A stretch of DNA of 39,300 nucleotides from an uncultured Eubacteriales bacterium (GTDB lineage Bacteria > Bacillota > Sulfobacillia > DYIH01 > JBBIPI01). Location: the NCBI GenBank assembly GCA_964467515.1, contig CAYXQP010000004.1, positions 1 through 39,300 on the forward strand, written 5' to 3'. The notes beneath the pieces are model-generated. The model saw nothing but the letters and a program-made list of their open reading frames with translations, had not been told where the DNA came from and made no database searches. The position numbers and the translations under genes were made by a program. Positions 3,729-34,287 of this stretch are shown here, piece by piece (the first letter of the stretch is position 1; each line of letters begins with the position of its first letter).

Positions 3729-3970
3729 GAACGTGATTCAGCGAACGGTTCAGTTGGCGGAGCAAGTCCCTCTTCACGTCCCCAGGGGGAGAGTGCCAGA
3801 GGTTTGCCGAGCTTCTCTTCATCCGTGGTGAGGTGCGGACGGCCCTTCGTGGCAAGGTCGGAGATGGCTCCTTTGCGCGCCGTGCGGGTTCCCCGGGTTG
3901 TGGCCGCCGTCCGTAGCTGACCGTCCTGGCCTTGGAGAGCGGGCGAGAAAACCGAAGGGTGGAATGCACA

Positions 3971-5388
<1,418 letters not shown>

Positions 5389-5392
<4 letters not shown>

Positions 5393-9584: not shown

Positions 9585-10159
9585 GCGGCCCGGTGGCGGC
9601 GGAGGAACCGAGGGGGGAGCGGGTGTGGCGTGTCCTCGTGGTGTGCACGGGCAACACCTGCCGCAGTCCCATGGCGGCCGCGCTGCTGGCCCGGGCCGCC
9701 CGACGGGCGGGCTGCCCGGTGCGGGTGATCTCGGCGGGGGTGGGCGCCTGGGAGGGGAGCCCGGCCTCCGGAGGGGCCGTGAGGGCCCTGCGGAGCTACG
9801 GGGAGGACATCTCGTCCCATCGTTCCCGCCGGCTGGCCTCCGACGAAGTCCGGTCCGCCGACCTGGTGCTCACCATGACGCGGGCGCAGAGGGCCATGGT
9901 GCGCCTTCTCGTCCCCGAGGCGGCGGACCGGGTCTACACCCTGGGGGGCTTCGCCCTTTCCGGCTGGCGGGCCGGTGAGGCCGAGGGCGAGGACGTGGAC
10001 ATCCCGGATCCCCTGGGCGGTTCCGACGAGGAATACGGGCGGACGGCGGCGCGGCTCTGGTCGCTGGCCAACGACGCGATGCGGTGGCTCTGCGCCGGAC
10101 GGGGCTCCGCCGGCGGGACGGGGGGAGGTGTGGGCGATGAGGATCGCGCTGGGCTCTGA
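9581..10159 (+). CDS. ywlE: Low-molecular-weight protein arginine phosphatase (YwlE-type)
   Basis: P-loop CTGNTCRS (Thr typical of arginine phosphatases rather than Ile of LMW-PTPs), DIPDP; ywl synteny. Confidence 0.85.
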   Translation: MSGPVAAEEPRGERVWRVLVVCTGNTCRSPMAAALLARAARRAGCPVRVISAGVGAWEGSPASGGAVRALRSYGEDISSHRSRRLASDEVRSADLVLTMTRAQRAMVRLLVPEAADRVYTLGGFALSGWRAGEAEGEDVDIPDPLGGSDEEYGRTAARLWSLANDAMRWLCAGRGSAGGTGGGVGDEDRAGL

Positions 10160-20743: not shown

Positions 20744-21184
20744 ATGGCCAGGACCTTCGAGATCCAGGTCTTCACGCCGGAGCGGACGGTGGTGCGGGCC
20801 AAGGCCGAGTACGTGAGCCTGCCCACGGCGGACGGGCTCTACGGCGTGCTGGGCGACCACGCTCCCATGGTGGGGCTCCTGCGCCCCGGGGTCGTCCACT
20901 TCCGGGGCGGCGGAGAGACGCAGGTGGTGGCCGTCATGGGGGGTTTCTTCCAGGTGCTGCCCGATCGCACGGTGGTGCTGGCGGACGAGGCCGAGCTGCC
21001 TGAGGAGGTGGACGTGACGGAGGCCCTGGCGGAGCGCGACCGCGCCCTGGCCGCCCTGGAGGCGGGCGGGGAGCAGGAGGAGGTGGCGCGGGCCAAGGAG
21101 GCCCTGGAGCGGGCCCTGGCCCGCCTCCCGGCCGACGGCCGCGGGGTGGCGGGTCAGAGGACGTCCTGGGCGCGCCAGCAGTGA
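20744..21184 (+). CDS. atpC: ATP synthase F1 subunit epsilon
   Basis: Beta-sandwich with GVLGDHAPM and VMGGF, plus a C-terminal helical hairpin; last atp gene. Confidence 0.95.
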   Translation: MARTFEIQVFTPERTVVRAKAEYVSLPTADGLYGVLGDHAPMVGLLRPGVVHFRGGGETQVVAVMGGFFQVLPDRTVVLADEAELPEEVDVTEALAERDRALAALEAGGEQEEVARAKEALERALARLPADGRGVAGQRTSWARQQ

Positions 21185-21360
21185 TCGAAGGATCCCTGGT
21201 GGGCACCGTCGCAGAATGGCATGTTCTCGGAGCGGCCGCACCGACAGAGGGCCACCTGCTCCCCGCCGGCATGTGCCCGACCCGTCCCGTCCAGGAGCGT
21301 GACCGGCCCTTGGACCAGGTACGGGCCGCGGTCCAGCACGCGGATGGTCACCTCGGCCAT
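21154..21360 (-). CDS. CDGSH iron-sulfur domain protein (68 aa)
   Basis: GPYLV and ALCRCGRSENMPFCDGAH match the C-x-C-x2-S-x3-P-x-C-D-G-(S/A)-H [2Fe-2S] motif. Confidence 0.93.
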   Translation of the reverse strand: MAEVTIRVLDRGPYLVQGPVTLLDGTGRAHAGGEQVALCRCGRSENMPFCDGAHQGSFDHCWRAQDVL

Positions 21361-21555
21361 GGTGTCACCCCCTTTCCCTGCCGATGTGAGGATACAGGGA
21401 GCAGTTTCTTAGGGCAAGTAATTACCGTAAGGAAACTTTGTATACCATTACTCCATCCTCCGACGGCGGGCTCCCCGGGAACGGCGGTGGTATCCTGCCG
21501 AGTCCGGGCGGTGCCGGAGGGCCGGCCGATGGCCGTCCGCCCCCGGAGGAGAAGG

Positions 21556-21588
21556 GGAAGCGCCCCGGAATGACACCGGGGCGCTTCC
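21556..21588 (-). terminator. Hairpin/likely terminator downstream of ctaD-like gene
   Basis: Perfect 13-bp stem GGAAGCGCCCCGG-N7-CCGGGGCGCTTCC, followed on the minus strand by a pyrimidine run (weak U tract). Confidence 0.6.
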
Positions 21589-21653
21589 GCGGAAGGCATC
21601 CCGTCCGTCCCTGACGCCCGGCAGCCTAAGCGGCCGCGGTCGCGGGACGGGGA

Positions 21654-23555
21654 TCAGGCGTGTTGCGCCGCCGCCTTGGCGGTGCCCTCCTCCTCGGTTT
21701 CCAGATAGTAGCCGTCGGCCTTCTCCAGGGCCCAGCCGAGGACGCCCAGGAGGATGATCACCAGCCCGGCTACCAGCCCCGGCACGCTGGGAGAGATGGC
21801 GCCGAAGCCGCCCACCAGGAGCCCCAGCCCCACCACGGCCGGCATGAAGGAGGGGGAGGGCATGTGGACGGCGTTGCCGTGGCGGTGGTGGTCCTCCTCG
21901 GCCGGCAGGATGTGACCGTTGCCGTGGGTCTTCTCGTACCAGAGGGCTTCCTTGCCGCGCACGAGGGGCAACCGGGCGAAGTTGTAGGCCGGCACCGGGC
22001 TGGGCGTGGCCCACTCCAGGGAGCGGCCCAATCCCCAGGGATCGGCTCCCGCGCGGCGACCGCTGGCCAGGCTCTCGATCATGGCTATCACCAGGGTTAG
22101 GACTCCGAGGGCCTGCAGGTAGGCGCCGATGGTCTCGATGGAGTTGAGGGGTCCCCAGCCGGAGTCGGGGATGTAGGTATAGACGCGCCGGGGCTGGCCC
22201 ATGAGGCCGGCTATGAGCTGCGGGAAGAAGGTCATGTTGAAGCCGATGAAAAGGATCCAGAAGCTGGGACGGCCGATGGCCTCGTTGAGCATCTTGCCCG
22301 TCATCTTGGGCCACCAGTAGGTTATGCCCGCCAGGAGCCCGAAGACGATGGCGCCGATGGCCACGTAGTGGAAGTGGCCCACGATGTACATGTTGTCCTG
22401 GAACTGCCGGTCCACGCTGGAGCTGGCGTTGACGAGGCCCGTCAGGCCGCCGATGTAGAACAGGAAGAAGAAGGCGCTCACGTAGTGCATGGGCAGCGTG
22501 AACCGGACCTTGCCTCCCCAGAGGGTGCCCAGCCAGATGAAGACGAAGATGGCGGCCGGTACGGAGACCGCCTTGGTCGAGATCGCGAAGGCCGTGTTGA
22601 CGGTGCTGCCGGAGCCCACCGTGTACATGTGGTGCAGCCAGACGATCCAGCTGAGGATGCCGATGGTGGAGATGGCCGCTACCATGGACCGGTAGCCGTA
22701 GAGGGGCTTGCCGGCGAAGGTGGGCAGCACCTCGGACACGCAGGCCAGGGGCGGCAGCAGCAGGATGTAGACCTCCGGGTGGCCGAAGAGCCAGAACATG
22801 TGCTGCCAGAGCAGCACGTCGCCTCCCCCGCCCGCCGCGAAGAAGCCGGTGCCCAGGACGCGGTCGAAGTAGAGGAGGATGAGGGCGAGCATGAAGGGGA
22901 TGCCGGCCGTCAGGCCCAGGATGGCCGTCATGAAAGTGAACCAGACGAGGGGCGGCATGTCCATGAGCCCCATGCCGGGCGCCCGCAGCTTGAGGATGGT
23001 CACGATGAAGTTGAGGCTGGTGAGCATGGTGCTGAGCATGCCCAGCTCGACGCCCACCAGGTAGGTGTTCATCCCGACGCCGGGGCTGAAGGGCTTGGTG
23101 CTGAGGGGCACGTAGGCGAACCAACCGGCGTCCGCCGCGCCTCCCAGGAACCAGCCGGCATTGATGATGACGCCGCCGGCCAGGAGACACCAGTAGCTCA
23201 TCATGTTCATGCGCGGGAAGGCCACATCCCGCGCGCCGATCATGACGGGCATGACGAAGTTGAGGATGCCCCAGATGATGGGCGTGGCCGCGAAGAAGAT
23301 CATGATGGTACCGTGCTGGGTGAGCACCTGGTTGTAGGTCTCGCCCACCACCAGGTTGTTGAGCGGGCGGGCCAGTTGGGTGCGGATGAGCAGGGCCTCG
23401 ACGCCTCCCACCACCAGGAACAGGAGGCCCGTGACGAAGTACATGATGCCGATGCGTTTGTGGTCCACGGTGTTGATCCACCCGAGGAAGCCGCTGTCAG
23501 CCCGCCGTTTCAGCACTGGTAGCGCGCCTTCCGCTCTGTGTGCCGCTACCGCCAT
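21654..23555 (-). CDS. ctaD: Heme-copper oxidase subunit I, A1-type, Bacillus CtaD-like, orphan and atypical
   Basis: TVDHKRIG, QHG, DVAFPRMN, WLFGHPEVY, HHM, HFHY, PRR, and a C-terminal HMPSPS two-helix extension. ATG at 23555 has a good RBS (ORF extends to 23681). Confidence 0.95.
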   Translation of the reverse strand: MAVAAHRAEGALPVLKRRADSGFLGWINTVDHKRIGIMYFVTGLLFLVVGGVEALLIRTQLARPLNNLVVGETYNQVLTQHGTIMIFFAATPIIWGILNFVMPVMIGARDVAFPRMNMMSYWCLLAGGVIINAGWFLGGAADAGWFAYVPLSTKPFSPGVGMNTYLVGVELGMLSTMLTSLNFIVTILKLRAPGMGLMDMPPLVWFTFMTAILGLTAGIPFMLALILLYFDRVLGTGFFAAGGGGDVLLWQHMFWLFGHPEVYILLLPPLACVSEVLPTFAGKPLYGYRSMVAAISTIGILSWIVWLHHMYTVGSGSTVNTAFAISTKAVSVPAAIFVFIWLGTLWGGKVRFTLPMHYVSAFFFLFYIGGLTGLVNASSSVDRQFQDNMYIVGHFHYVAIGAIVFGLLAGITYWWPKMTGKMLNEAIGRPSFWILFIGFNMTFFPQLIAGLMGQPRRVYTYIPDSGWGPLNSIETIGAYLQALGVLTLVIAMIESLASGRRAGADPWGLGRSLEWATPSPVPAYNFARLPLVRGKEALWYEKTHGNGHILPAEEDHHRHGNAVHMPSPSFMPAVVGLGLLVGGFGAISPSVPGLVAGLVIILLGVLGWALEKADGYYLETEEEGTAKAAAQHA

Positions 23556-23741
23556 CGCCTCTTCCCTCCCCACTGAGATTCGAGACTCAACGGAAGCCCT
23601 GGCCTCGTGGCCGGGCCCTGCTCGCTCCCCCCGCCTGCCATCCCCCCTTTGCGGTCCGTCGCCGGAAACAGGCTCAGCCAACCCCCGGAGTGAGGTTGGC
23701 AGAGCTGGCCGGTAACCCGGATCACGGCCCAGTTGCCCAAG

Positions 23742-26268: not shown

Positions 26269-26381
26269 CGGCGCCGCCGCCCCGGTTTCCCTCCCGCCGC
26301 CTCCGAGCTAGTAAACGTAACGAGTCGCCTCTGCCGGTCCGATTGGAACACATGTCCCCCATGCGATTCTGGGTAAACACG

Positions 26382-26410
26382 GCATTATTCTGACGCCTGG
26401 TCATATAGAT
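26382..26410 (+). promoter_or_regulatory. Putative sigmaE promoter for spoIIID
   Basis: GCATTATT-N12-CATATAGAT resembles the mother-cell sigmaE consensus; spoIIID is sigmaE-dependent in Bacillus and Clostridium. Confidence 0.5.
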
Positions 26411-26444
26411 TGGGCAAACGCCCGGGCCGAAGGGGGACGTGGTC

Positions 26445-27930: not shown

Positions 27931-27941
27931 TGTGGTATATA
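27931..27941 (+). promoter_or_regulatory. Putative extended -10 promoter for riboswitch-flhO-flhP
   Basis: TGTG-G-TATATA, with TTCCCC 17 bp upstream. Confidence 0.45.
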
Positions 27942-27973
27942 GGGTGAAAGCGGGCCAAGGCCCGCCTCGCAGA

Positions 27974-28070
27974 GGCTCCGACAAGGGCAAACCCGGCGAA
28001 AGCCGGGGGCGCAAAGCCACGGGTCTACGGCTCCCGGTGGGAGCTAGGACGGCCGGGCTGCCGAAGGGCC
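27974..28070 (+). ncRNA. Cyclic di-GMP-I (GEMM) riboswitch aptamer
   Basis: GGGCAAACC-N-GAAA tetraloop-N-GG, GCGCAAAGC, GGGTCTA receptor arm, GCCGGGCTGCCGAA. G20 (27986) and C92 (28061) equivalents are present, and P1 GGCTCCG/CG(AA)GGGCC can form. Confidence 0.93.
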
Positions 28071-28098
28071 GGTGAGCCAGCCTTATCGGATGCGTCCA

Positions 28099-28131
28099 CC
28101 CCGTGCCGGAGCCGGCGCGGGGTTTCTTCTT
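28099..28131 (+). terminator. Riboswitch expression-platform intrinsic terminator
   Basis: 10-bp stem CCCCGTGCCG-GAGC-CGGCGCGGGG then TTTCTTCTT, located before the flhO RBS. Confidence 0.85.
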
Positions 28132-28152
28132 GCCGGAGGGGGGTGGCGGGCA

Positions 28153-28890
28153 GTGCTGCGGGGCATCTACATGGCGGCGGCGGGCATGCTGGCCGAGGAA
28201 GCGCGCCAGGAGGTGGTGGCCAACAACCTGGCCAACGCGGGCACCACCGCCTTCAAGCGCGAGGCGGCCACGGTTCTGGCCCGGGACGGGGTGGAGATGG
28301 AGCGGATCGCCGACGGCGGGGCTGCGCCCATCGGTGAATGGGGAGGGACGGTGGCTCCCGGACCCCATGCCGTTGACCTGCGTCAGGGCGGCTTGCAGCC
28401 GACGGGGCGTCCCCTGGACCTGGCCTTGGTGGGGAGGGGTTTCCTTGCTCTCGAGACACCGGGGGGTGTCCGGTACACCAGGGACGGCTCCCTGCGCGTG
28501 GACCGGGAGGGGTACCTCGTCAACGCGGACGGCCATCGCGTCCTGGGGGAGAGCGGTCCCATTCAGGTGGGGGGCGGCGAGGTGACGGTCTCTTCCGGGG
28601 GGGAGGTCACGGCCGGCGGCCAGGTGCGGGGACGGCTGCGGGTGGTGGACTTCCCGGCCGGCTCTCTCACAAGGGATGGAGGCAATCTCTTTCGCGCTCG
28701 GGACGAGTCCCAGGGGAAGCCGGCGGCGGCCACGGTGCAGACAGGCCACCTGGAGCTGGCCAACGTGCACGTGGTGCAGGAGATGGCGGACCTCATCGCC
28801 GTGATGAGAGCGTACGAGGCCAATCAGAGGTTGATCCGGGCCCAGGACGAGACCCTGGGCCAGCTCGTGAGCGAGGTGGGGAAGGTATGA
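28153..28890 (+). CDS. flhO: Flagellar basal-body rod/hook protein, FlgF/FlhO-like
   Basis: MLRGIYMAAAGM, ANNLAN, TGRPLDLAL.G.GF, YTRDG, LELANV..VQEM..LI...RAYEAN. GTG start at 28153 chosen by homology. Confidence 0.85.
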   Translation: MLRGIYMAAAGMLAEEARQEVVANNLANAGTTAFKREAATVLARDGVEMERIADGGAAPIGEWGGTVAPGPHAVDLRQGGLQPTGRPLDLALVGRGFLALETPGGVRYTRDGSLRVDREGYLVNADGHRVLGESGPIQVGGGEVTVSSGGEVTAGGQVRGRLRVVDFPAGSLTRDGGNLFRARDESQGKPAAATVQTGHLELANVHVVQEMADLIAVMRAYEANQRLIRAQDETLGQLVSEVGKV

Positions 28891-29666
28891 TCCAGTCCCT
28901 CTGGTCGGCGGCCAGCGGCATGGAGGCGCAGCAGCTCAAGGTGGATGCCATCGCCAGCAACCTGGCCAACGCCAGCACGCCCGGATACAAGGCGAGCCGT
29001 GTCACCTTCCAGGACCTCCTCTACCTTGGTGCGGGAGCCGAAGAGGGGGAGGGCCCCCAGGTGGGCACCGGCGTGCGGGTGGCGACGGTACGGCGGGACT
29101 TCGGGCAAGGGGCCTTGGAGGCCACAGGCGCTCCCTGGGACCTGGCCCTGGAGGGGCCGGGCTTCCTGGCCGTGAAGCTGGCCGACGGGCAGCCCGCCTA
29201 CCGCCGCGGCGGCAGTATGCACTTTTCCCCGGTGGGCAATGACAGGCTCCTCCTGGCGGACGAAGCGGGGAACCCTGTCCTGGACGACAGGGGGCAGCCG
29301 GTGGAGATGGCGGCCGCCGATGCCGCGGCCGTGACGGTGGACCCCACCGGCGCCCTCGTGGCGCCGGGCAGCGATGGGCAGCCCCGTCAGGTGGCGAAGC
29401 TGGGGGTTCACGTCTTCGCCAATGCCGAGGGGCTGGCGGCCCTGGGCAACGGCCTTTACCGGGCGACGCCCGCCTCCGGCGAGGCGCGGGCCGCCAAGGC
29501 GGAGGACGGCGTCTCCGTCCGCCAGGGGATGCTGGAGGGCTCCAACGTCCAGGTGGTGCAGGAGATGGTGGGGCTCATCGTGGCCCAGCGGGCCTACGAG
29601 CTGGCGGCCCGGGCCGTCCAGAGCTCGGACCAGATGATGGAGATCGCCAACAACCTGAGGCGCTGA
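28887..29666 (+). CDS. flgG: Flagellar basal-body rod protein, FlgG/FlhP-like
   Basis: MIQSLWSAASGMEAQQ, IASNLAN, QVGTGVR, QGMLEGSNV, AQRAYE, DQMMEIANNL. Confidence 0.88.
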   Translation: MIQSLWSAASGMEAQQLKVDAIASNLANASTPGYKASRVTFQDLLYLGAGAEEGEGPQVGTGVRVATVRRDFGQGALEATGAPWDLALEGPGFLAVKLADGQPAYRRGGSMHFSPVGNDRLLLADEAGNPVLDDRGQPVEMAAADAAAVTVDPTGALVAPGSDGQPRQVAKLGVHVFANAEGLAALGNGLYRATPASGEARAAKAEDGVSVRQGMLEGSNVQVVQEMVGLIVAQRAYELAARAVQSSDQMMEIANNLRR

Positions 29667-29680
29667 CGTGGGGAGGGGGG

Positions 29681-31546
29681 TCACTTGCCAGGGGCCGTGA
29701 GGGCGCCGTCGGCGTCGGGGGCCGTCGGCACCTCCGCCACCCGGACGCGGTTTCGGCCCGCGGCCTTGGCCGCGTAAAGGGCGTCGTCGGCGGCCCTGAT
29801 GAGGGATTGCCGGTTGGAGGCGGCGTCGGGATAGGTGGCCACCCCGGCGCTGAGGGTGATCCCCGTCAGCTTGTGCCCGCCGGGGACATCAATGGCGGCC
29901 GACTCCAACAACTGCCTGATTCTCTCCAGGACCGCCAGGGCGCCGTCGGCATCCGTCTCCGGGAAGATGATGGCTATCTCCTCGCCGCCGTAACGGGCGG
30001 CCAAGTCACTGCTCCGGAGGCTCTCTCTCAGGATGTGGGCCAGCTGTCGCAGCACCTCGTCGCCCACCTGGTGGCCGAAGGTGTCGTTTACCTGCTTGAA
30101 GCGGTCCAGATCCAGCATGGCCAGGGCCAGGCGCGAGCCCGACCGGGAGGCCCGGTTGATCTCCTGGTCCAGCCTCTCCTGGAAGAAGCCGTGGTTGTAC
30201 AGGCCCGTCAGCGGGTCGCGGGTGGCCAGGTCCTGCAGCACCAGGTTGAGGCCGCGGAGGTCGGCGAGGAGGAGGTCCCGCTCCCGCGTGTAGTGGTCCA
30301 GCCGCTTGGCGACGATGGCGGCCACCGTCATCATGGCCGCCGTGGTGAGCCCGTGGCTCGTCACGTGCCAGCCGATGACGGCAGGGCTGAAGCTGGCTCC
30401 CCAGCCGCTGTCGCGGACGAGCTCCAGGGCCGAGAGGACCAGCGTGATGCCGCCCGTGAGGAAAACGCCCTGCAGGCCGAGGACGATGCCGGCGAGCGGT
30501 ATCGGTATCAGGGCCATGGAGAGATAGAGGAGGGCCTTCAACTCGTCCGCCGTTATCATGAGGAAGCTGAGGGATCCGCTGAGAAAGGCGAAGTGAACCA
30601 GGGCCCGCTGGCGGGGATGCCCGGGGCCGACCCGGGGCCAGAGGACGTTGAAGACCGTCAGGGCCCCCATGGTGGCGGCAAGGGAGCGCCACCCGGGGCT
30701 CCGGGCCTCGCCGGTGAAGACGGGGATCAGGGTCAGGACGCAAACGAAGAACCAGGTTATGAACTCGAGATAGGAGTAGTCTATGGGAGCCCCGCCCGGC
30801 TCGGTCGCTTCCAGGTGGCGGGCGGGGGCGGGCTCGCGCCTGAGGCGCAGGATCAGGGGTGCCAGGGCGAGGCTCGCGTAGACGGCCACGCCCGTCCAGA
30901 CCCGCACGAGGGCGAAGTTGGCCGCCAGGGCCGTCAGCACGAGGAAACAGGCAGCGTCGGCCGCCGGTCGCAGGGTCGCGGGCCCGCGGCCGGCCAGGAG
31001 GACGGCCTGCAGGCCGCCCGCCAGGATGGCACCGGCGGCGAAGGGGAGCGGCCCCACGAGGTGGGCGACGGGGTACGCAGCGGGTGGGAAGCGGTGGGGT
31101 AGGAAAAGCAGGAGGAGGCCCAACACCAGGAGAAAGACGGTCAGGACGGCCCGGTGGAGGTCGAGGGGAGGCCGCCAGCCCCTGCTCTCGGCGAAGGCGG
31201 TGTACAGCAGGCCCAGGGCGAGGAGGCCGTAGATCAGCACGCCCGAGGGAACGGAGGTGGAGGCGAAGTTGGCCGCCAGGAGGACAAAGGGGAGAGAGGC
31301 CAGGAGGCGTCCGGGCGCCGAGAAGGGCGGCCGGACCGGCCCGCCCGTCTGGGCCAGCAGGTAGGCTCCCGTCGCCACGGTCAGCGGGGCGAGGAGGTGG
31401 AAGTGCTGGCGGACCAAGGGAGCGTAGAGGGTGGGCGAGAGGGTGCCGCCGGCGATGAAGAAGGCGATGCCCAGGGCGACCTGAGCCAGCCCCGCCGCGA
31501 AGATGAACGGCAAGAGGTCGGCGCCTTTCTGCCTCGCAGTGTCCAC
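29681..31546 (-). CDS. Integral-membrane diguanylate cyclase (GGDEF domain)
   Basis: DPLTGLYN, DLDRFKQVNDTFGHQVGDEVL, RSSD I-site, RYGGEEI; long polytopic N-terminus. GTG start at 31546 follows a GAGGAGG RBS (ORF extends to 31612). Confidence 0.93.
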   Translation of the reverse strand: MDTARQKGADLLPFIFAAGLAQVALGIAFFIAGGTLSPTLYAPLVRQHFHLLAPLTVATGAYLLAQTGGPVRPPFSAPGRLLASLPFVLLAANFASTSVPSGVLIYGLLALGLLYTAFAESRGWRPPLDLHRAVLTVFLLVLGLLLLFLPHRFPPAAYPVAHLVGPLPFAAGAILAGGLQAVLLAGRGPATLRPAADAACFLVLTALAANFALVRVWTGVAVYASLALAPLILRLRREPAPARHLEATEPGGAPIDYSYLEFITWFFVCVLTLIPVFTGEARSPGWRSLAATMGALTVFNVLWPRVGPGHPRQRALVHFAFLSGSLSFLMITADELKALLYLSMALIPIPLAGIVLGLQGVFLTGGITLVLSALELVRDSGWGASFSPAVIGWHVTSHGLTTAAMMTVAAIVAKRLDHYTRERDLLLADLRGLNLVLQDLATRDPLTGLYNHGFFQERLDQEINRASRSGSRLALAMLDLDRFKQVNDTFGHQVGDEVLRQLAHILRESLRSSDLAARYGGEEIAIIFPETDADGALAVLERIRQLLESAAIDVPGGHKLTGITLSAGVATYPDAASNRQSLIRAADDALYAAKAAGRNRVRVAEVPTAPDADGALTAPGK

Positions 31547-31687: not shown

Positions 31688-31696
31688 TGATATTAT
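31688..31696 (+). promoter_or_regulatory. Putative extended -10 promoter for fabZ-thrC-thrB
   Basis: TG-A-TATTAT. Confidence 0.55.
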
Positions 31697-31729
31697 CGTT
31701 GCGGACTCTTGCGAGTAAAGGTGGCCGAC

Positions 31730-32263
31730 TTGGCGGCGGAGGGCGGGGCGCAACCATCTTCGAAGGCGGCGGGCGGGCTCGCGGCGGCGGAGGTCGCCCT
31801 GCTCCTGCCCCACCGCTATCCCTTCCTCCTGGTGGACCGCGTCCTGGAGCTGGAGCCCGGCCGGCGCATCACGGCCGTCAAGAACGTCACCCACAACGAG
31901 CCCTTCTTTCCCGGTCACTTCCCGGGTTATCCCGTGATGCCGGGGGTGCTCATGGTGGAAGCCCTGGCCCAGGCGGCGGCCGTCTGCCTGGCGGCCGGCG
32001 GCGAGGCCGGGCGGCTGGGACTCTTCGCGGGCCTGGACGGCGTGCGCTTCCGGCGGCAGGTCTTTCCCGGCGACACCATCCTCCTGCGGGTCGAGGTGAC
32101 CCGCCGGCGGGGATCCCTGGTGAAAGCCAGCGGCAGAGCCCTGGTGGGAGACCTGGTGGCCGTGGAGGCCGAAGAGCTGAGCTTTGCCCTGGTGGAGCTG
32201 GACCGGCCCGGCGGGCGGCCGGGGGGGCCGCCGGAGACGCGGGTGCGGCCGACCGGGGCCTGA
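31730..32263 (+). CDS. fabZ: 3-hydroxyacyl-ACP dehydratase
   Basis: [13 protein letters not shown] and [20 protein letters not shown]. Start approximate. Confidence 0.97.
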
Positions 32264-32287
32264 CGGCAAAGGGCGGCGGGTGATAGG

Positions 32288-33370
32288 GTGGGCTGGCGCG
32301 GGATACTGCACGAGTTCGGCCAATACCTTCCCCTGGACGGCGAGACGCCCCTCCTCAGCCTCAACGAGGGGGACACGCCCCTGGTGGAGGCGCCGGAGCT
32401 GGCCCGGCGCTCGGGTTGCGATCTGAGGCTTTTCCTCAAGTGCGAGGGCCTCAATCCCACCGGCTCCTTCAAGGACAGGGGCATGGTGCTGGCGGTGGCA
32501 CGGGCGGTGGCCGAGGGTGCGGAGCGGGTGGTGTGCGCCTCCACGGGCAACACCTCGGCTTCGGCGGCGGCCTACGCGGCGCGCGCCGGCCTCCCCTGCC
32601 TGGTCCTGGTGCCGCACGGCAAGGTGGCCCTGGGCAAATTGGCCCAGGCCATCGTGTACGGGGCGCGGGTCGTGGCGGTGGAGGGCAACTTCGACCAGGC
32701 CCTGGCCATGGTGCGGGAGTTGGCGGCCACCCGGCCCGGCACCACCCTGGTCAACTCGGTGAACCCGTATCGCCTCGAGGGGCAGAAGACGGCGGCCTTC
32801 GAGGTCTGCCGCGACCTGGGTGATGCCCCCGACTACCTGGCCATCCCCGTGGGCAACGCCGGCAACATCTCGGCCTACTGGCGCGGCTTCGTCCAGTGGC
32901 ACGAGGCGGGGCGCTGCCGCCGCCGACCCAGGATGCTCGGGTTCCAGGCTGCGGGGGCGGCCCCTCTCGTCTACGGGCGGCCGGTGGAGCGGCCGGAGAC
33001 GGTGGCCACGGCCATCCGCATCGGGCAGCCGGTGAACGGCGAACGGGCGCGGACTGCGGTCCGGGAGTCGGGGGGGCTCTTCGCCGCGGTGACCGACAGC
33101 GAGATCCTGGCCGCCTATCACCTGCTGGCCGAGGCGGAGGGCATCTTCGCCGAGCCGGCTTCGGCCGCCTCGGTGGCCGGCGTGCTCAAGCTGGCCGGCC
33201 AAGGATACTTCCCGCGGGGAGCCACCGTGGTGGCGGTGCTGACGGGCAACGGTCTCAAGGATCCGGACACGGCCATGGCGACGGGCGCCGAGCCCGTCAT
33301 CCTCCCCGCCCGGTTGGACGCCCTGGAGGCGCTCCTCTCCGGCTCCTCCGTCGCAGCGGTGCCGGTATGA
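32288..33370 (+). CDS. thrC: Threonine synthase
   Basis: EGLNPTGSFKDRG (PLP Lys), CASTGNTSASAAAY, VNSVNPYR, PVGNAGNI, EPASAAS. Confidence 0.97.
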   Translation: MGWRGILHEFGQYLPLDGETPLLSLNEGDTPLVEAPELARRSGCDLRLFLKCEGLNPTGSFKDRGMVLAVARAVAEGAERVVCASTGNTSASAAAYAARAGLPCLVLVPHGKVALGKLAQAIVYGARVVAVEGNFDQALAMVRELAATRPGTTLVNSVNPYRLEGQKTAAFEVCRDLGDAPDYLAIPVGNAGNISAYWRGFVQWHEAGRCRRRPRMLGFQAAGAAPLVYGRPVERPETVATAIRIGQPVNGERARTAVRESGGLFAAVTDSEILAAYHLLAEAEGIFAEPASAASVAGVLKLAGQGYFPRGATVVAVLTGNGLKDPDTAMATGAEPVILPARLDALEALLSGSSVAAVPV

Positions 33371-34287
33371 AGCGCGTGCGGGTGCGGGTGCCCGCCACGT
33401 CGGCCAACCTGGGGCCGGGCTTCGACTGCCTGGGTCTTGCCCTGGCCATGTGGAACGTGGTGACGGCCGAGCCCGCGCCGGCCTGGGAGGTGGAGGTGCG
33501 GGGGGAGGGGGAGGCTTCCCTGTCCCGGGGAGCCGACAACCTGGTGGCGCGGGCCGCCCGGCGGGCCCTGGAGGAGGCCGGCGCGGCCGGCATGGCCCTC
33601 AGGCTCGGCCTGGACAACGGGGTGCCCCTGGCGCGAGGGCTCGGGTCCAGCGCCGCCGCCGCCGTGGGCGGGCTCCTGGCGGCCGACGCCCTCCTGGGAC
33701 ACCCCCTGGGCCGGGAGCGACTGCTGGCCCTGGCGGTGGAGATGGAGGGGCATGGAGACAACGCGGCGCCGGCCCTCTGGGGCGGCCTCACGGTCTTTTC
33801 CCCGCGCAAGGGAGGGGGTGCCGTGGTGCGCCTCCCTCCCCCCTCCGGCCTGCGCCTGGGGTTGGTGATCCCCGAGGTGCCCGTGAGCACGACCGCCGCC
33901 CGGGCCGCCCTGCCCGGGACGGTGCCGCGGGACGACGCCGTCCACAACGTGCAGCGGGCCTGCCTGCTGGTGGCGGCGCTGGCGGCCGGCCGCCTCGACC
34001 TGCTGGGGGAGGCTCTCTCCGACCGCCTCCACCAGCCCTACCGGACGCGGCTGGTGCCGGGGTTGGCCGAGGCCATGGCAGGCGGTGTGGCGGGCGTCCT
34101 AGGGGTGTGCCTGAGCGGGTCCGGCCCGACCCTGCTGTGCTTTCTGGACCCCGAGCTGCCCGAGGAAGCCGTGGCGGCCGCCCTGTCCCTGGTGGCGTCA
34201 CCCCTCCGGGAGCGGGGGGTGGCTTGCCGCACGGCCCCCGTGGCTCCGGCCGCCGAGGGCGCCGTTGTGGTGGAGACCACCGTGTAA
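33367..34287 (+). CDS. thrB: Homoserine kinase
   Basis: VPATSANLGPGFD, PLARGLGSSAAA (GHMP motif), HQPYR, LSGSGPT. Confidence 0.96.
   Translation: MKRVRVRVPATSANLGPGFDCLGLALAMWNVVTAEPAPAWEVEVRGEGEASLSRGADNLVARAARRALEEAGAAGMALRLGLDNGVPLARGLGSSAAAAVGGLLAADALLGHPLGRERLLALAVEMEGHGDNAAPALWGGLTVFSPRKGGGAVVRLPPPSGLRLGLVIPEVPVSTTAARAALPGTVPRDDAVHNVQRACLLVAALAAGRLDLLGEALSDRLHQPYRTRLVPGLAEAMAGGVAGVLGVCLSGSGPTLLCFLDPELPEEAVAAALSLVASPLRERGVACRTAPVAPAAEGAVVVETTV

Follow-up and report, generated by a model that had tools for sequence, protein, structure and literature searches.

A predicted c-di-GMP riboswitch on flhO-flhP and a neighbouring membrane GGDEF gene in an uncultured Bacillota lineage

Genes at the flhO-flhP locus

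The DNA considered here, called the window below, is a stretch of 39,300 nucleotides (positions 1 to 39,300, forward strand, of contig CAYXQP010000004.1 in assembly GCA_964467515.1). It belongs to an uncultured, high-GC, heat-loving subsurface lineage of the Bacillota, the metagenome source runs of which are from subsurface and hot spring sites. Pfam matches and open reading frames (ORFs) outline a Bacillus-like gene block of murA, spoIID, spoIIID, mbl, flhO and flhP, followed by fabZ, thrC, thrB, secG and rnr. Within this block we examined positions 27974 to 31546, which run from the first base of the P1 helix of an RNA aptamer in the flhO leader to the first base of a gene encoding a membrane protein with a GGDEF domain, a putative diguanylate cyclase. 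The aptamer is of the type that binds cyclic di-GMP (c-di-GMP), and the protein, referred to here as the cyclase, is of the type that makes it.

The two flagellar genes lie next to mbl, apart from the main flagellar operon. The first, flhO (28153-28890, + strand), encodes a FlgF/FlgG-type distal rod protein of 245 aa with the Pfam domains Flg_bb_rod, LlgE_F_G_D1 and Flg_bbr_C, and the second, flhP (28887-29666, + strand), a FlgG-type distal rod protein of 259 aa, recognised from Pfam and from its relatives. They overlap by 4 bp, and flhP ends with TGA at 29664-29666. An ORF start at 28072 was considered for flhO and rejected in favour of the GTG at 28153, which has the ribosome-binding site GGAGGGGGG 10 nt upstream (28135-28143, + strand) and gives an N-terminus, VLRGIYMAAAGML, and a length of 245 aa that agree with the orthologues (84-93% identical, equal length).

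The cyclase gene (29681-31546, - strand) encodes 621 aa, starting from a GTG at 31546 behind the ribosome-binding site GAGGAGGA and ending in a stop codon that reads TCA on the + strand (29681-29683). It is therefore convergent with flhP, and only 14 bp (29667-29680) separate the two stop codons, as an earlier note on this stretch had described. No terminator was found in this spacer by the simple consensus scan used throughout for such sites. A sigma-A-like promoter for the cyclase gene, TTTACT-16-GATAAT (31692-31719, - strand), is the sole promoter-like match in 20 kb, and is kept as TTTACG-16-GATAAT in a related locus, L005. On the other side the cyclase gene is divergent from fabZ (31709-32263, + strand; Pfam FabA), the true start of which is probably later than 31709; fabZ orthologues encode 140-169 aa.

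Aptamer and terminator in the flhO leader

The c-di-GMP-I-type aptamer, with its extended P1 helix, occupies 27974-28070 (+ strand) and was found with Infernal as an Rfam match at 27977-28066. Five leaders were compared, those of the window and of the related loci L005, L067, L070 and L071. The best model in the window is RF03167 (c-di-GMP-I-GGC, clan CL00126), which scores 75.3 bits (E 3e-16; gathering score 59), and it is the top covariance model in all five leaders (60-75.6 bits). A second CL00126 family also clears its own gathering threshold there. All 25 of the consensus pairs are standard and the P1a loop is a GAAA tetraloop. The aptamer is almost invariant over the five leaders, while synonymous sites in the neighbouring gene have diverged (dS ~0.6), and its GC-rich P1b extension varies in length. 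Covariation is limited because the leader sequences are so similar, with one compensatory change, G-C to A-U, in P1b of L070. The L070 leader (9641-10000) also has a much longer P1b insertion.

The name of the best model raises the question of the ligand. Weinberg et al., in 2017, reportedly proposed that GGC-type variants recognise other signalling molecules. A true variant of this kind would sense another signal, leaving the RNA and the cyclase unmatched. The top rank of RF03167 in every leader is what such a reading has in its favour, and the binding pocket points the other way. Its bases, in the Vibrio cholerae Vc2 numbering applied to the RF03167 alignment, are G20 (27986), A47 (28013) and C92 (28061), all on the + strand and corresponding to model positions 10, 37 and 75, and the same three bases are present in the other four leaders. 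RF03167 has a conserved G at position 37, but all five leaders have an A there, and the A at position 9 of the model is a G in all five. With A47 present alongside G20 and C92, c-di-GMP is the expected ligand. Together with the second clan family passing its threshold, this makes a true GGC variant highly improbable, and the leader RNA is expected, on its pocket bases, to be a canonical c-di-GMP-I aptamer. The riboswitch with a G at position 20 that the earlier note had invoked thus stands, as part of a canonical pocket.

The higher score of RF03167 is best explained by peripheral features that the leaders have in common with the GGC variants, namely the P1a sequence, its GAAA loop and the start of P1b; unlike those variants, they lack a G at the A47 position and carry a G in place of the A at model position 9. 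In its three-helix layout, the GAAA tetraloop of P1a and the three ligand-contacting bases the aptamer is like Vc2 of V. cholerae, from which it differs in the peripheral sequences, the GC-rich P1b extension of variable length and the downstream gene. Canonical aptamers for which RF03167 is nevertheless the best model are found in the window (27977-28066), L005 (13493-13581), L067 (1453-1545) and L070 (9745-9856). Automated annotation would mislabel such canonical c-di-GMP-I aptamers as variants with an unknown ligand. A pattern scan for the aptamer in a genome collection returned two unrelated loci, both with non-flagellar genes.

Behind the aptamer, and before the ribosome-binding site of flhO, sits an intrinsic terminator (28098-28131, + strand) made up of a GC-rich 11-bp stem, the loop AGCC and UUUCUUCUU. 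It is stronger than any other terminator-like site in 20 kb and is kept in L005, L067 and L071, and its place in L070 is taken by another terminator. With its start ~28 nt past P1 and no overlap between the two, the terminator cannot be masked by a folded aptamer, and it still forms when the aptamer fold is enforced. An ON switch was rejected on these two grounds. When the 3' arm of the terminator is withheld, the free fold reaches -73.5 kcal/mol, versus -59.9 kcal/mol for the aptamer-enforced fold. In the free fold the terminator 5' arm is paired with the P1 5' strand and with G19-G21, and GGGCGCA is paired with UGCGUCC. The element GGAUGCGUCC (28088-28097, + strand), just ahead of the terminator, is complementary to the aptamer junction GGGCGCA, which includes A47, and would belong to the ligand-free fold. 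It is kept in L071 and L005, where the partner reads GGACGCA so that a G-U pair becomes A-U, and is missing from L067. In truncated folds of all five leaders the terminator 5' arm pairs with some part of the aptamer. A further pairing from the first fold, between the P1 5' strand and the ribosome-binding site (CUCCG/CGGAG), was discarded as it is not conserved in L005. Taken together, the modelled folds predict that the leader is a transcriptional OFF switch.

This is a known type of arrangement. Class I c-di-GMP riboswitches of Clostridioides difficile are transcriptional OFF switches, one of which controls the flgB flagellar operon (PMC11477304). Like that switch (Cd1/Cdi1_3), the leader described here has an intrinsic terminator behind a class I aptamer, and would be OFF at high c-di-GMP. 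The C. difficile target is a 29-gene early operon that includes sigD, whereas here it is flhO-flhP only. The cyclase gene as a conserved neighbour also sets the present locus apart, as does its origin in an uncultured, high-GC subsurface lineage of the Bacillota.

The leader also appears to have its own promoter. An extended -10 promoter-like element, TGTG-G-TATATA (27931-27941, + strand), precedes it, and the pattern TGTGnTATAT, in which we presume to see the TRTG -16 region of Bacillota promoters, is kept in the window, L071, L005 and L067; this suggests that flhO-flhP is transcribed from an extended -10 promoter of its own. Upstream of the L070 leader GCCGATAA is similar to the -10 element of sigma-D/sigma-28 promoters of flagellar genes, and the window clade has the extended -10 instead. 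A short hairpin ahead of the aptamer, GCGGGCC-AA-GGCCCGC (27950-27965, + strand), is largely kept in L005 and L071 and may stabilise the 5' end of the RNA.

The neighbouring GGDEF protein

The last 160 residues of the cyclase form its GGDEF catalytic domain (29747-30226, - strand), which matches PF00990 with 177 bits against a cut-off of 23.8 (E 2.8e-52). Along the protein the motifs, all on the - strand, are DLDRF (30098-30112, residues 479-483), NDTFGHQVGDEVL (30050-30088, residues 487-499), the I-site RSSD of the form RxxD (30005-30016, residues 511-514) and the signature motif GGEEI (29975-29989, residues 520-524). The I-site stands five residues ahead of GGEEI, and the spacing RSSD-LAARY-GGEEI aligns with RSSDLAARYGGEEF of WspR. 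Both Gly and both Glu residues are kept, as are the metal-binding Asp/DxD, the Asn/Asp of the guanine pocket and the C-terminal KxxGRN. The nearest sequences in the PDB are DgcR (6ZXM), WspR (3BRE), a Marinobacter protein (3IGN) and PleD (1W25), with E values of 1e-41 to 1e-37 and catalytic-domain identities of 37-47%, and all four are proven diguanylate cyclases. An AlphaFold (AF2) model of the cyclase built from six sequences has a mean predicted local distance difference test (pLDDT) score of 76.8, and its GGDEF part superimposes on 3IGN with a template modelling (TM) score of 0.95 and a root-mean-square deviation of 1.4 A. The cyclase is thus like WspR, PleD, DgcR and 3IGN in its motifs, RxxD included, and in its GGDEF fold, and differs from them in having a polytopic membrane input rather than a receiver domain and in a motif that ends in Ile.

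Some GGDEF proteins make a different product. Hypr enzymes of the GacA type, which synthesise 3',3'-cyclic GMP-AMP (cGAMP), reportedly have Ser at the position of D344 in PleD, a finding attributed to Hallberg et al. in 2016. The cyclase has Asp at this position, after Gly in GHQVGDEVL, which speaks against its being a Hypr cGAMP synthase. The catalytic and metal residues, the I-site, this Asp and the GGEEI ending had all been read by the earlier note and are present.

The one departure in the motif is its last residue, since GGEEI fits GG[D/E]EF at four of the five positions and has Ile in place of Phe. The domain could therefore be imagined as catalytically dead and acting only as a c-di-GMP receptor or scaffold, the more so as GGEEI went unmentioned in a literature search, which documented no active GGEEI cyclase. 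GGEEI is kept in the three closest orthologues; more distant family members have GGEEF. Against a dead domain, the exchange of Phe for Ile is conservative, I, L or M occupies the last motif position in 9 of 119 homologues, and the residues for catalysis, metal binding and the guanine pocket are kept together with KxxGRN. The cyclase gene is under purifying selection, with a ratio of non-synonymous to synonymous substitution rates (dN/dS) of 0.12-0.21 for the GGDEF domain and of 0.26-0.46 for the membrane part. On this evidence we regard a dead domain as distinctly improbable. The cyclase would seem to bear every sequence mark of an active, product-inhibited and c-di-GMP-specific enzyme, and activity is likely.

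The N-terminal part is a polytopic membrane domain of ~14 helices, judged from hydropathy and the AF2 helices, followed by a long connecting helix (30227-31546, - strand; a 419-residue part spans 30290-31546). The 419-residue domain has no match to a Pfam family, even at E<=10, and Foldseek with the full cyclase model matched GGDEF structures only, a result that does not bear on the membrane domain. Seven relatives of the domain were found at E<=1e-3 among 1.84 billion representative proteins, and alignment against genome contigs and metagenome contigs added no new ones. Wherever these relatives have a recognised output domain it is GGDEF or GAF-PAS-GGDEF-EAL, the latter in the fusions P0244 and P0248. 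An internal repeat in the membrane domain is weakly supported (BLASTP E 0.019).

Conservation of the pair and the circuit it may form

Full-length relatives of the cyclase are few, with only two found in a search of 5.8 billion clustered proteins. One is in L005 (GCA_900174565.1), where a cyclase 78% identical to that of the window stands in the order fabZ, cyclase, 16 bp, flhP, flhO, riboswitch, mbl, and the consensus scan found no terminator in the 16-bp convergent gap. The other, 60% identical, occupies the same slot between fabZ and flhP in L006, and the riboswitch is found on L067, a contig that overlaps L006 with 99.6% identity over 1.7 kb. A third orthologue, P0243, came from the profile-free scan of representative proteins. 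It is encoded on L073, is 39% identical overall and 34% in the membrane domain, has GGEEF, and its gene is flanked on one side by a divergent fabZ and on the other by a Rod-binding gene and flhP that converge on it. In a tree of FlhP the window, L005 and L006 form a clade with 100% support and L073 falls outside it. The position is therefore not unique to this genome, as the earlier note had allowed it might be, and orthologues occupy the fabZ/flhP slot in three other lineages, one of them outside the window clade. Scans of the genome collection gave only unrelated GGDEF domains with the cyclase as query, and distant phyla with FlhP as query, with no riboswitch in the 12 loci concerned.

Other relatives show the locus without the cyclase. 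In L070 (GCA_020723785.1; FlhO 50% identical) a Rod-binding (PF10135) gene holds the slot. L068, L069, L072 and L077 (FlhO 54-58% identical) have neither riboswitch nor cyclase, with 43-85 bp between mbl and flhO and a small ORF between flhP and fabZ. Small genes for Rod-binding/FlgJ-N-like proteins (100-138 aa, PF10135, mostly weak matches) are a feature of this interval in the relatives, at 5679-6095 in L068, 2922-3245 in L069, 11787-12191 in L070, 9393-9698 in L072, 2419-2721 in L077, 2184-2540 in L073 and 8783-9145 in L006, where the ORF, also seen in L067, overlaps the 3' end of the cyclase gene by ~70 bp. The window and L005 appear, from this comparison of gene content, to have lost it. 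The earlier note had seen the cyclase as interrupting a conserved flhO-flhP-fabZ order; the cyclase does sit in that slot, but the order in the nearest relatives without it is flhO-flhP-small Rod-binding-like gene-fabZ.

Across these loci the riboswitch is present in three of three cyclase loci with a known leader and in one of five without the cyclase, which is suggestive. Judged by the gene orders, the position of the cyclase is conserved and fairly old, and the riboswitch is at least as old or independent. With moderate confidence we favour the view that the two form a conserved two-part motility module, in which an OFF riboswitch acts on flhO-flhP and the neighbouring membrane cyclase is its input. 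Several observations weigh against this. The three best cyclase loci form a single clade, and the presence of the riboswitch alongside them therefore does not count as independent evidence. L070 has the riboswitch without the cyclase, and distant cyclase-family members (L074 and L075) stand in unrelated, non-flagellar contexts, which together indicate that each part can work alone. The antiterminator pairings differ among the leaders, and the full-length minimum-energy fold holds the terminator regardless, so the OFF decision must be kinetic and co-transcriptional. The literature silence on GGEEI belongs here too.

The same observations can be taken to mean that the cyclase is a passenger, one of many c-di-GMP enzymes that landed in a permissive slot and feeds only the common pool. 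The order mbl-flhO-flhP-x-fabZ-thrC-thrB is syntenic in all relatives, so a cyclase inserted once would stay by descent, and the cyclase gene is not co-transcribed with flhO-flhP. That each part occurs without the other fits this reading as well. It has more difficulty with L073, where an orthologue only 34% identical in its membrane domain sits in the slot outside the window clade. Lineages that branch between the two, judging from identity, lack the cyclase, so that the gene must either have been retained for a long time and lost several times, or have reached the same place repeatedly. The close convergent spacing has also persisted or even become an overlap (14 bp, 16 bp, ~70 bp overlap). 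We consider a passenger gene unlikely, though it is to be taken seriously.

For the two-part module, the sequences show the components with their motifs and conservation, and the predicted folds, and the steps that we infer comprise ligand binding, the direction of switching, the activity of the enzyme and the cyclase as a main input to the riboswitch. A signal at the membrane or envelope would activate the cyclase and c-di-GMP would rise. With c-di-GMP bound the aptamer would stay folded, the terminator would form and flhO-flhP would go untranscribed. No distal rod would then be made, flagellum assembly would stop and no new flagella would appear. In the ligand-free state the nascent leader would refold, the P1 5' strand, G19-G21 and the A47 junction pairing with the terminator 5' arm and the sequence preceding it, and RNA polymerase would read through into flhO-flhP. 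Most likely the messenger acts via the ordinary cytoplasmic pool, and input and output most likely lie side by side because they were co-inherited or co-selected, not because the signal is spatially restricted.

The gene arrangement has nevertheless invited a more local interpretation. The earlier note spoke of a 'self-contained' circuit, for which we find no support, as Pfam searches of the 39-kb window gave no phosphodiesterase and no other c-di-GMP gene. A circuit at the level of the locus could take two forms. In one, the cyclase would be inserted into the membrane with its mRNA still attached to the gene, and c-di-GMP would be made close to the flhO leader being transcribed 1.6 kb away. 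In the other, read-through from flhO-flhP would be antisense to the cyclase gene and the cyclase transcript antisense to flhP, so that high c-di-GMP, by ending flhO-flhP transcription, would relieve interference on the cyclase gene, giving positive feedback. A riboswitch of this type acts during transcription, which places the receptor physically at the locus, and the adjacency is conserved. Since the consensus scan gave no terminator at the convergent junction of either the window or L005, the transcripts from the two sides may run into or past each other, and in L006 the small gene itself runs into the cyclase gene.

Such a circuit is purely inferential, and c-di-GMP is a small, diffusible molecule with no phosphodiesterase 'sink' near the locus. 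The terminator scan was a simple consensus, and Rho, encoded in the window at 3932-5392, may end both convergent transcripts with no need of a hairpin. Local c-di-GMP signalling is accepted on experimental criteria, namely a phenotype specific to the knockout, a global pool that does not change and direct interaction of the cyclase with its effector (PMC10211494), and these involve protein-protein contact. In E. coli the DgcC-PdeK-cellulose synthase and DgcJ-NfrB systems each have a membrane cyclase dedicated, or proposed to be so, to one output (PMC10211494). The present locus is like these modules in pairing a membrane cyclase with one output. Theirs is a case of protein-protein contact with a protein effector, backed by experiment on all three counts, whereas here the receptor is an RNA, there is no nearby sink and the cyclase is not known to interact with its effector. 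We therefore hold a locus-level circuit to be improbable. A bistable switch that combines transcriptional interference between flhO-flhP and the cyclase gene with delivery of c-di-GMP to the adjacent riboswitch during its transcription, from an enzyme inserted into the membrane while its own gene is transcribed, is more doubtful again; if true, it would give 'local' second-messenger signalling its first example with an RNA as the receptor.

Returning to the two-part module, much of it is already known in kind, namely the class of aptamer, OFF control of flagellar genes and the GGDEF enzyme. What is new is the restriction of the target to flhO-flhP, the conserved neighbouring cyclase and the rare input domain, and a literature search found no paper that pairs flhO with a c-di-GMP riboswitch. 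Riboswitch control of flagellar genes by c-di-GMP is established in one model, flgB of C. difficile. If the module is real, the same logic would act here at a different and very economical point, since completing the hook-basal body depends on the two distal-rod genes. In Bacillus, completion of the hook-basal body also gates the late flagellar genes through the FlgM checkpoint. It would mean, too, that an input enzyme can be a conserved neighbour of the output that an RNA controls. The module links a likely physiological output to a very rare, uncharacterised membrane input domain, and as a compact, clonable system of three parts (sensor cyclase, aptamer with terminator, and reporter) it comes from a thermophilic lineage.

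The surrounding genes differ among the relatives in other ways. The genes fabZ-thrC-thrB (31709-34287 in the window) are kept in every related locus fetched (L005, L006, L068-L072 and L077), so this grouping characterises the lineage rather than this genome in particular. Between atpC and murA, L070 and L072 lack the stand-alone COX1 (ctaD) and CDGSH genes that are present in the window (21154-23681) and L005 (17984-20377). The window (26269-26438) and L005 have no Peptidase_M23 (spoIIQ-like) gene between spoIID and spoIIID; one is present there in L068 (1743-2474), L070 (6807-7713) and L072 (5338-6114).

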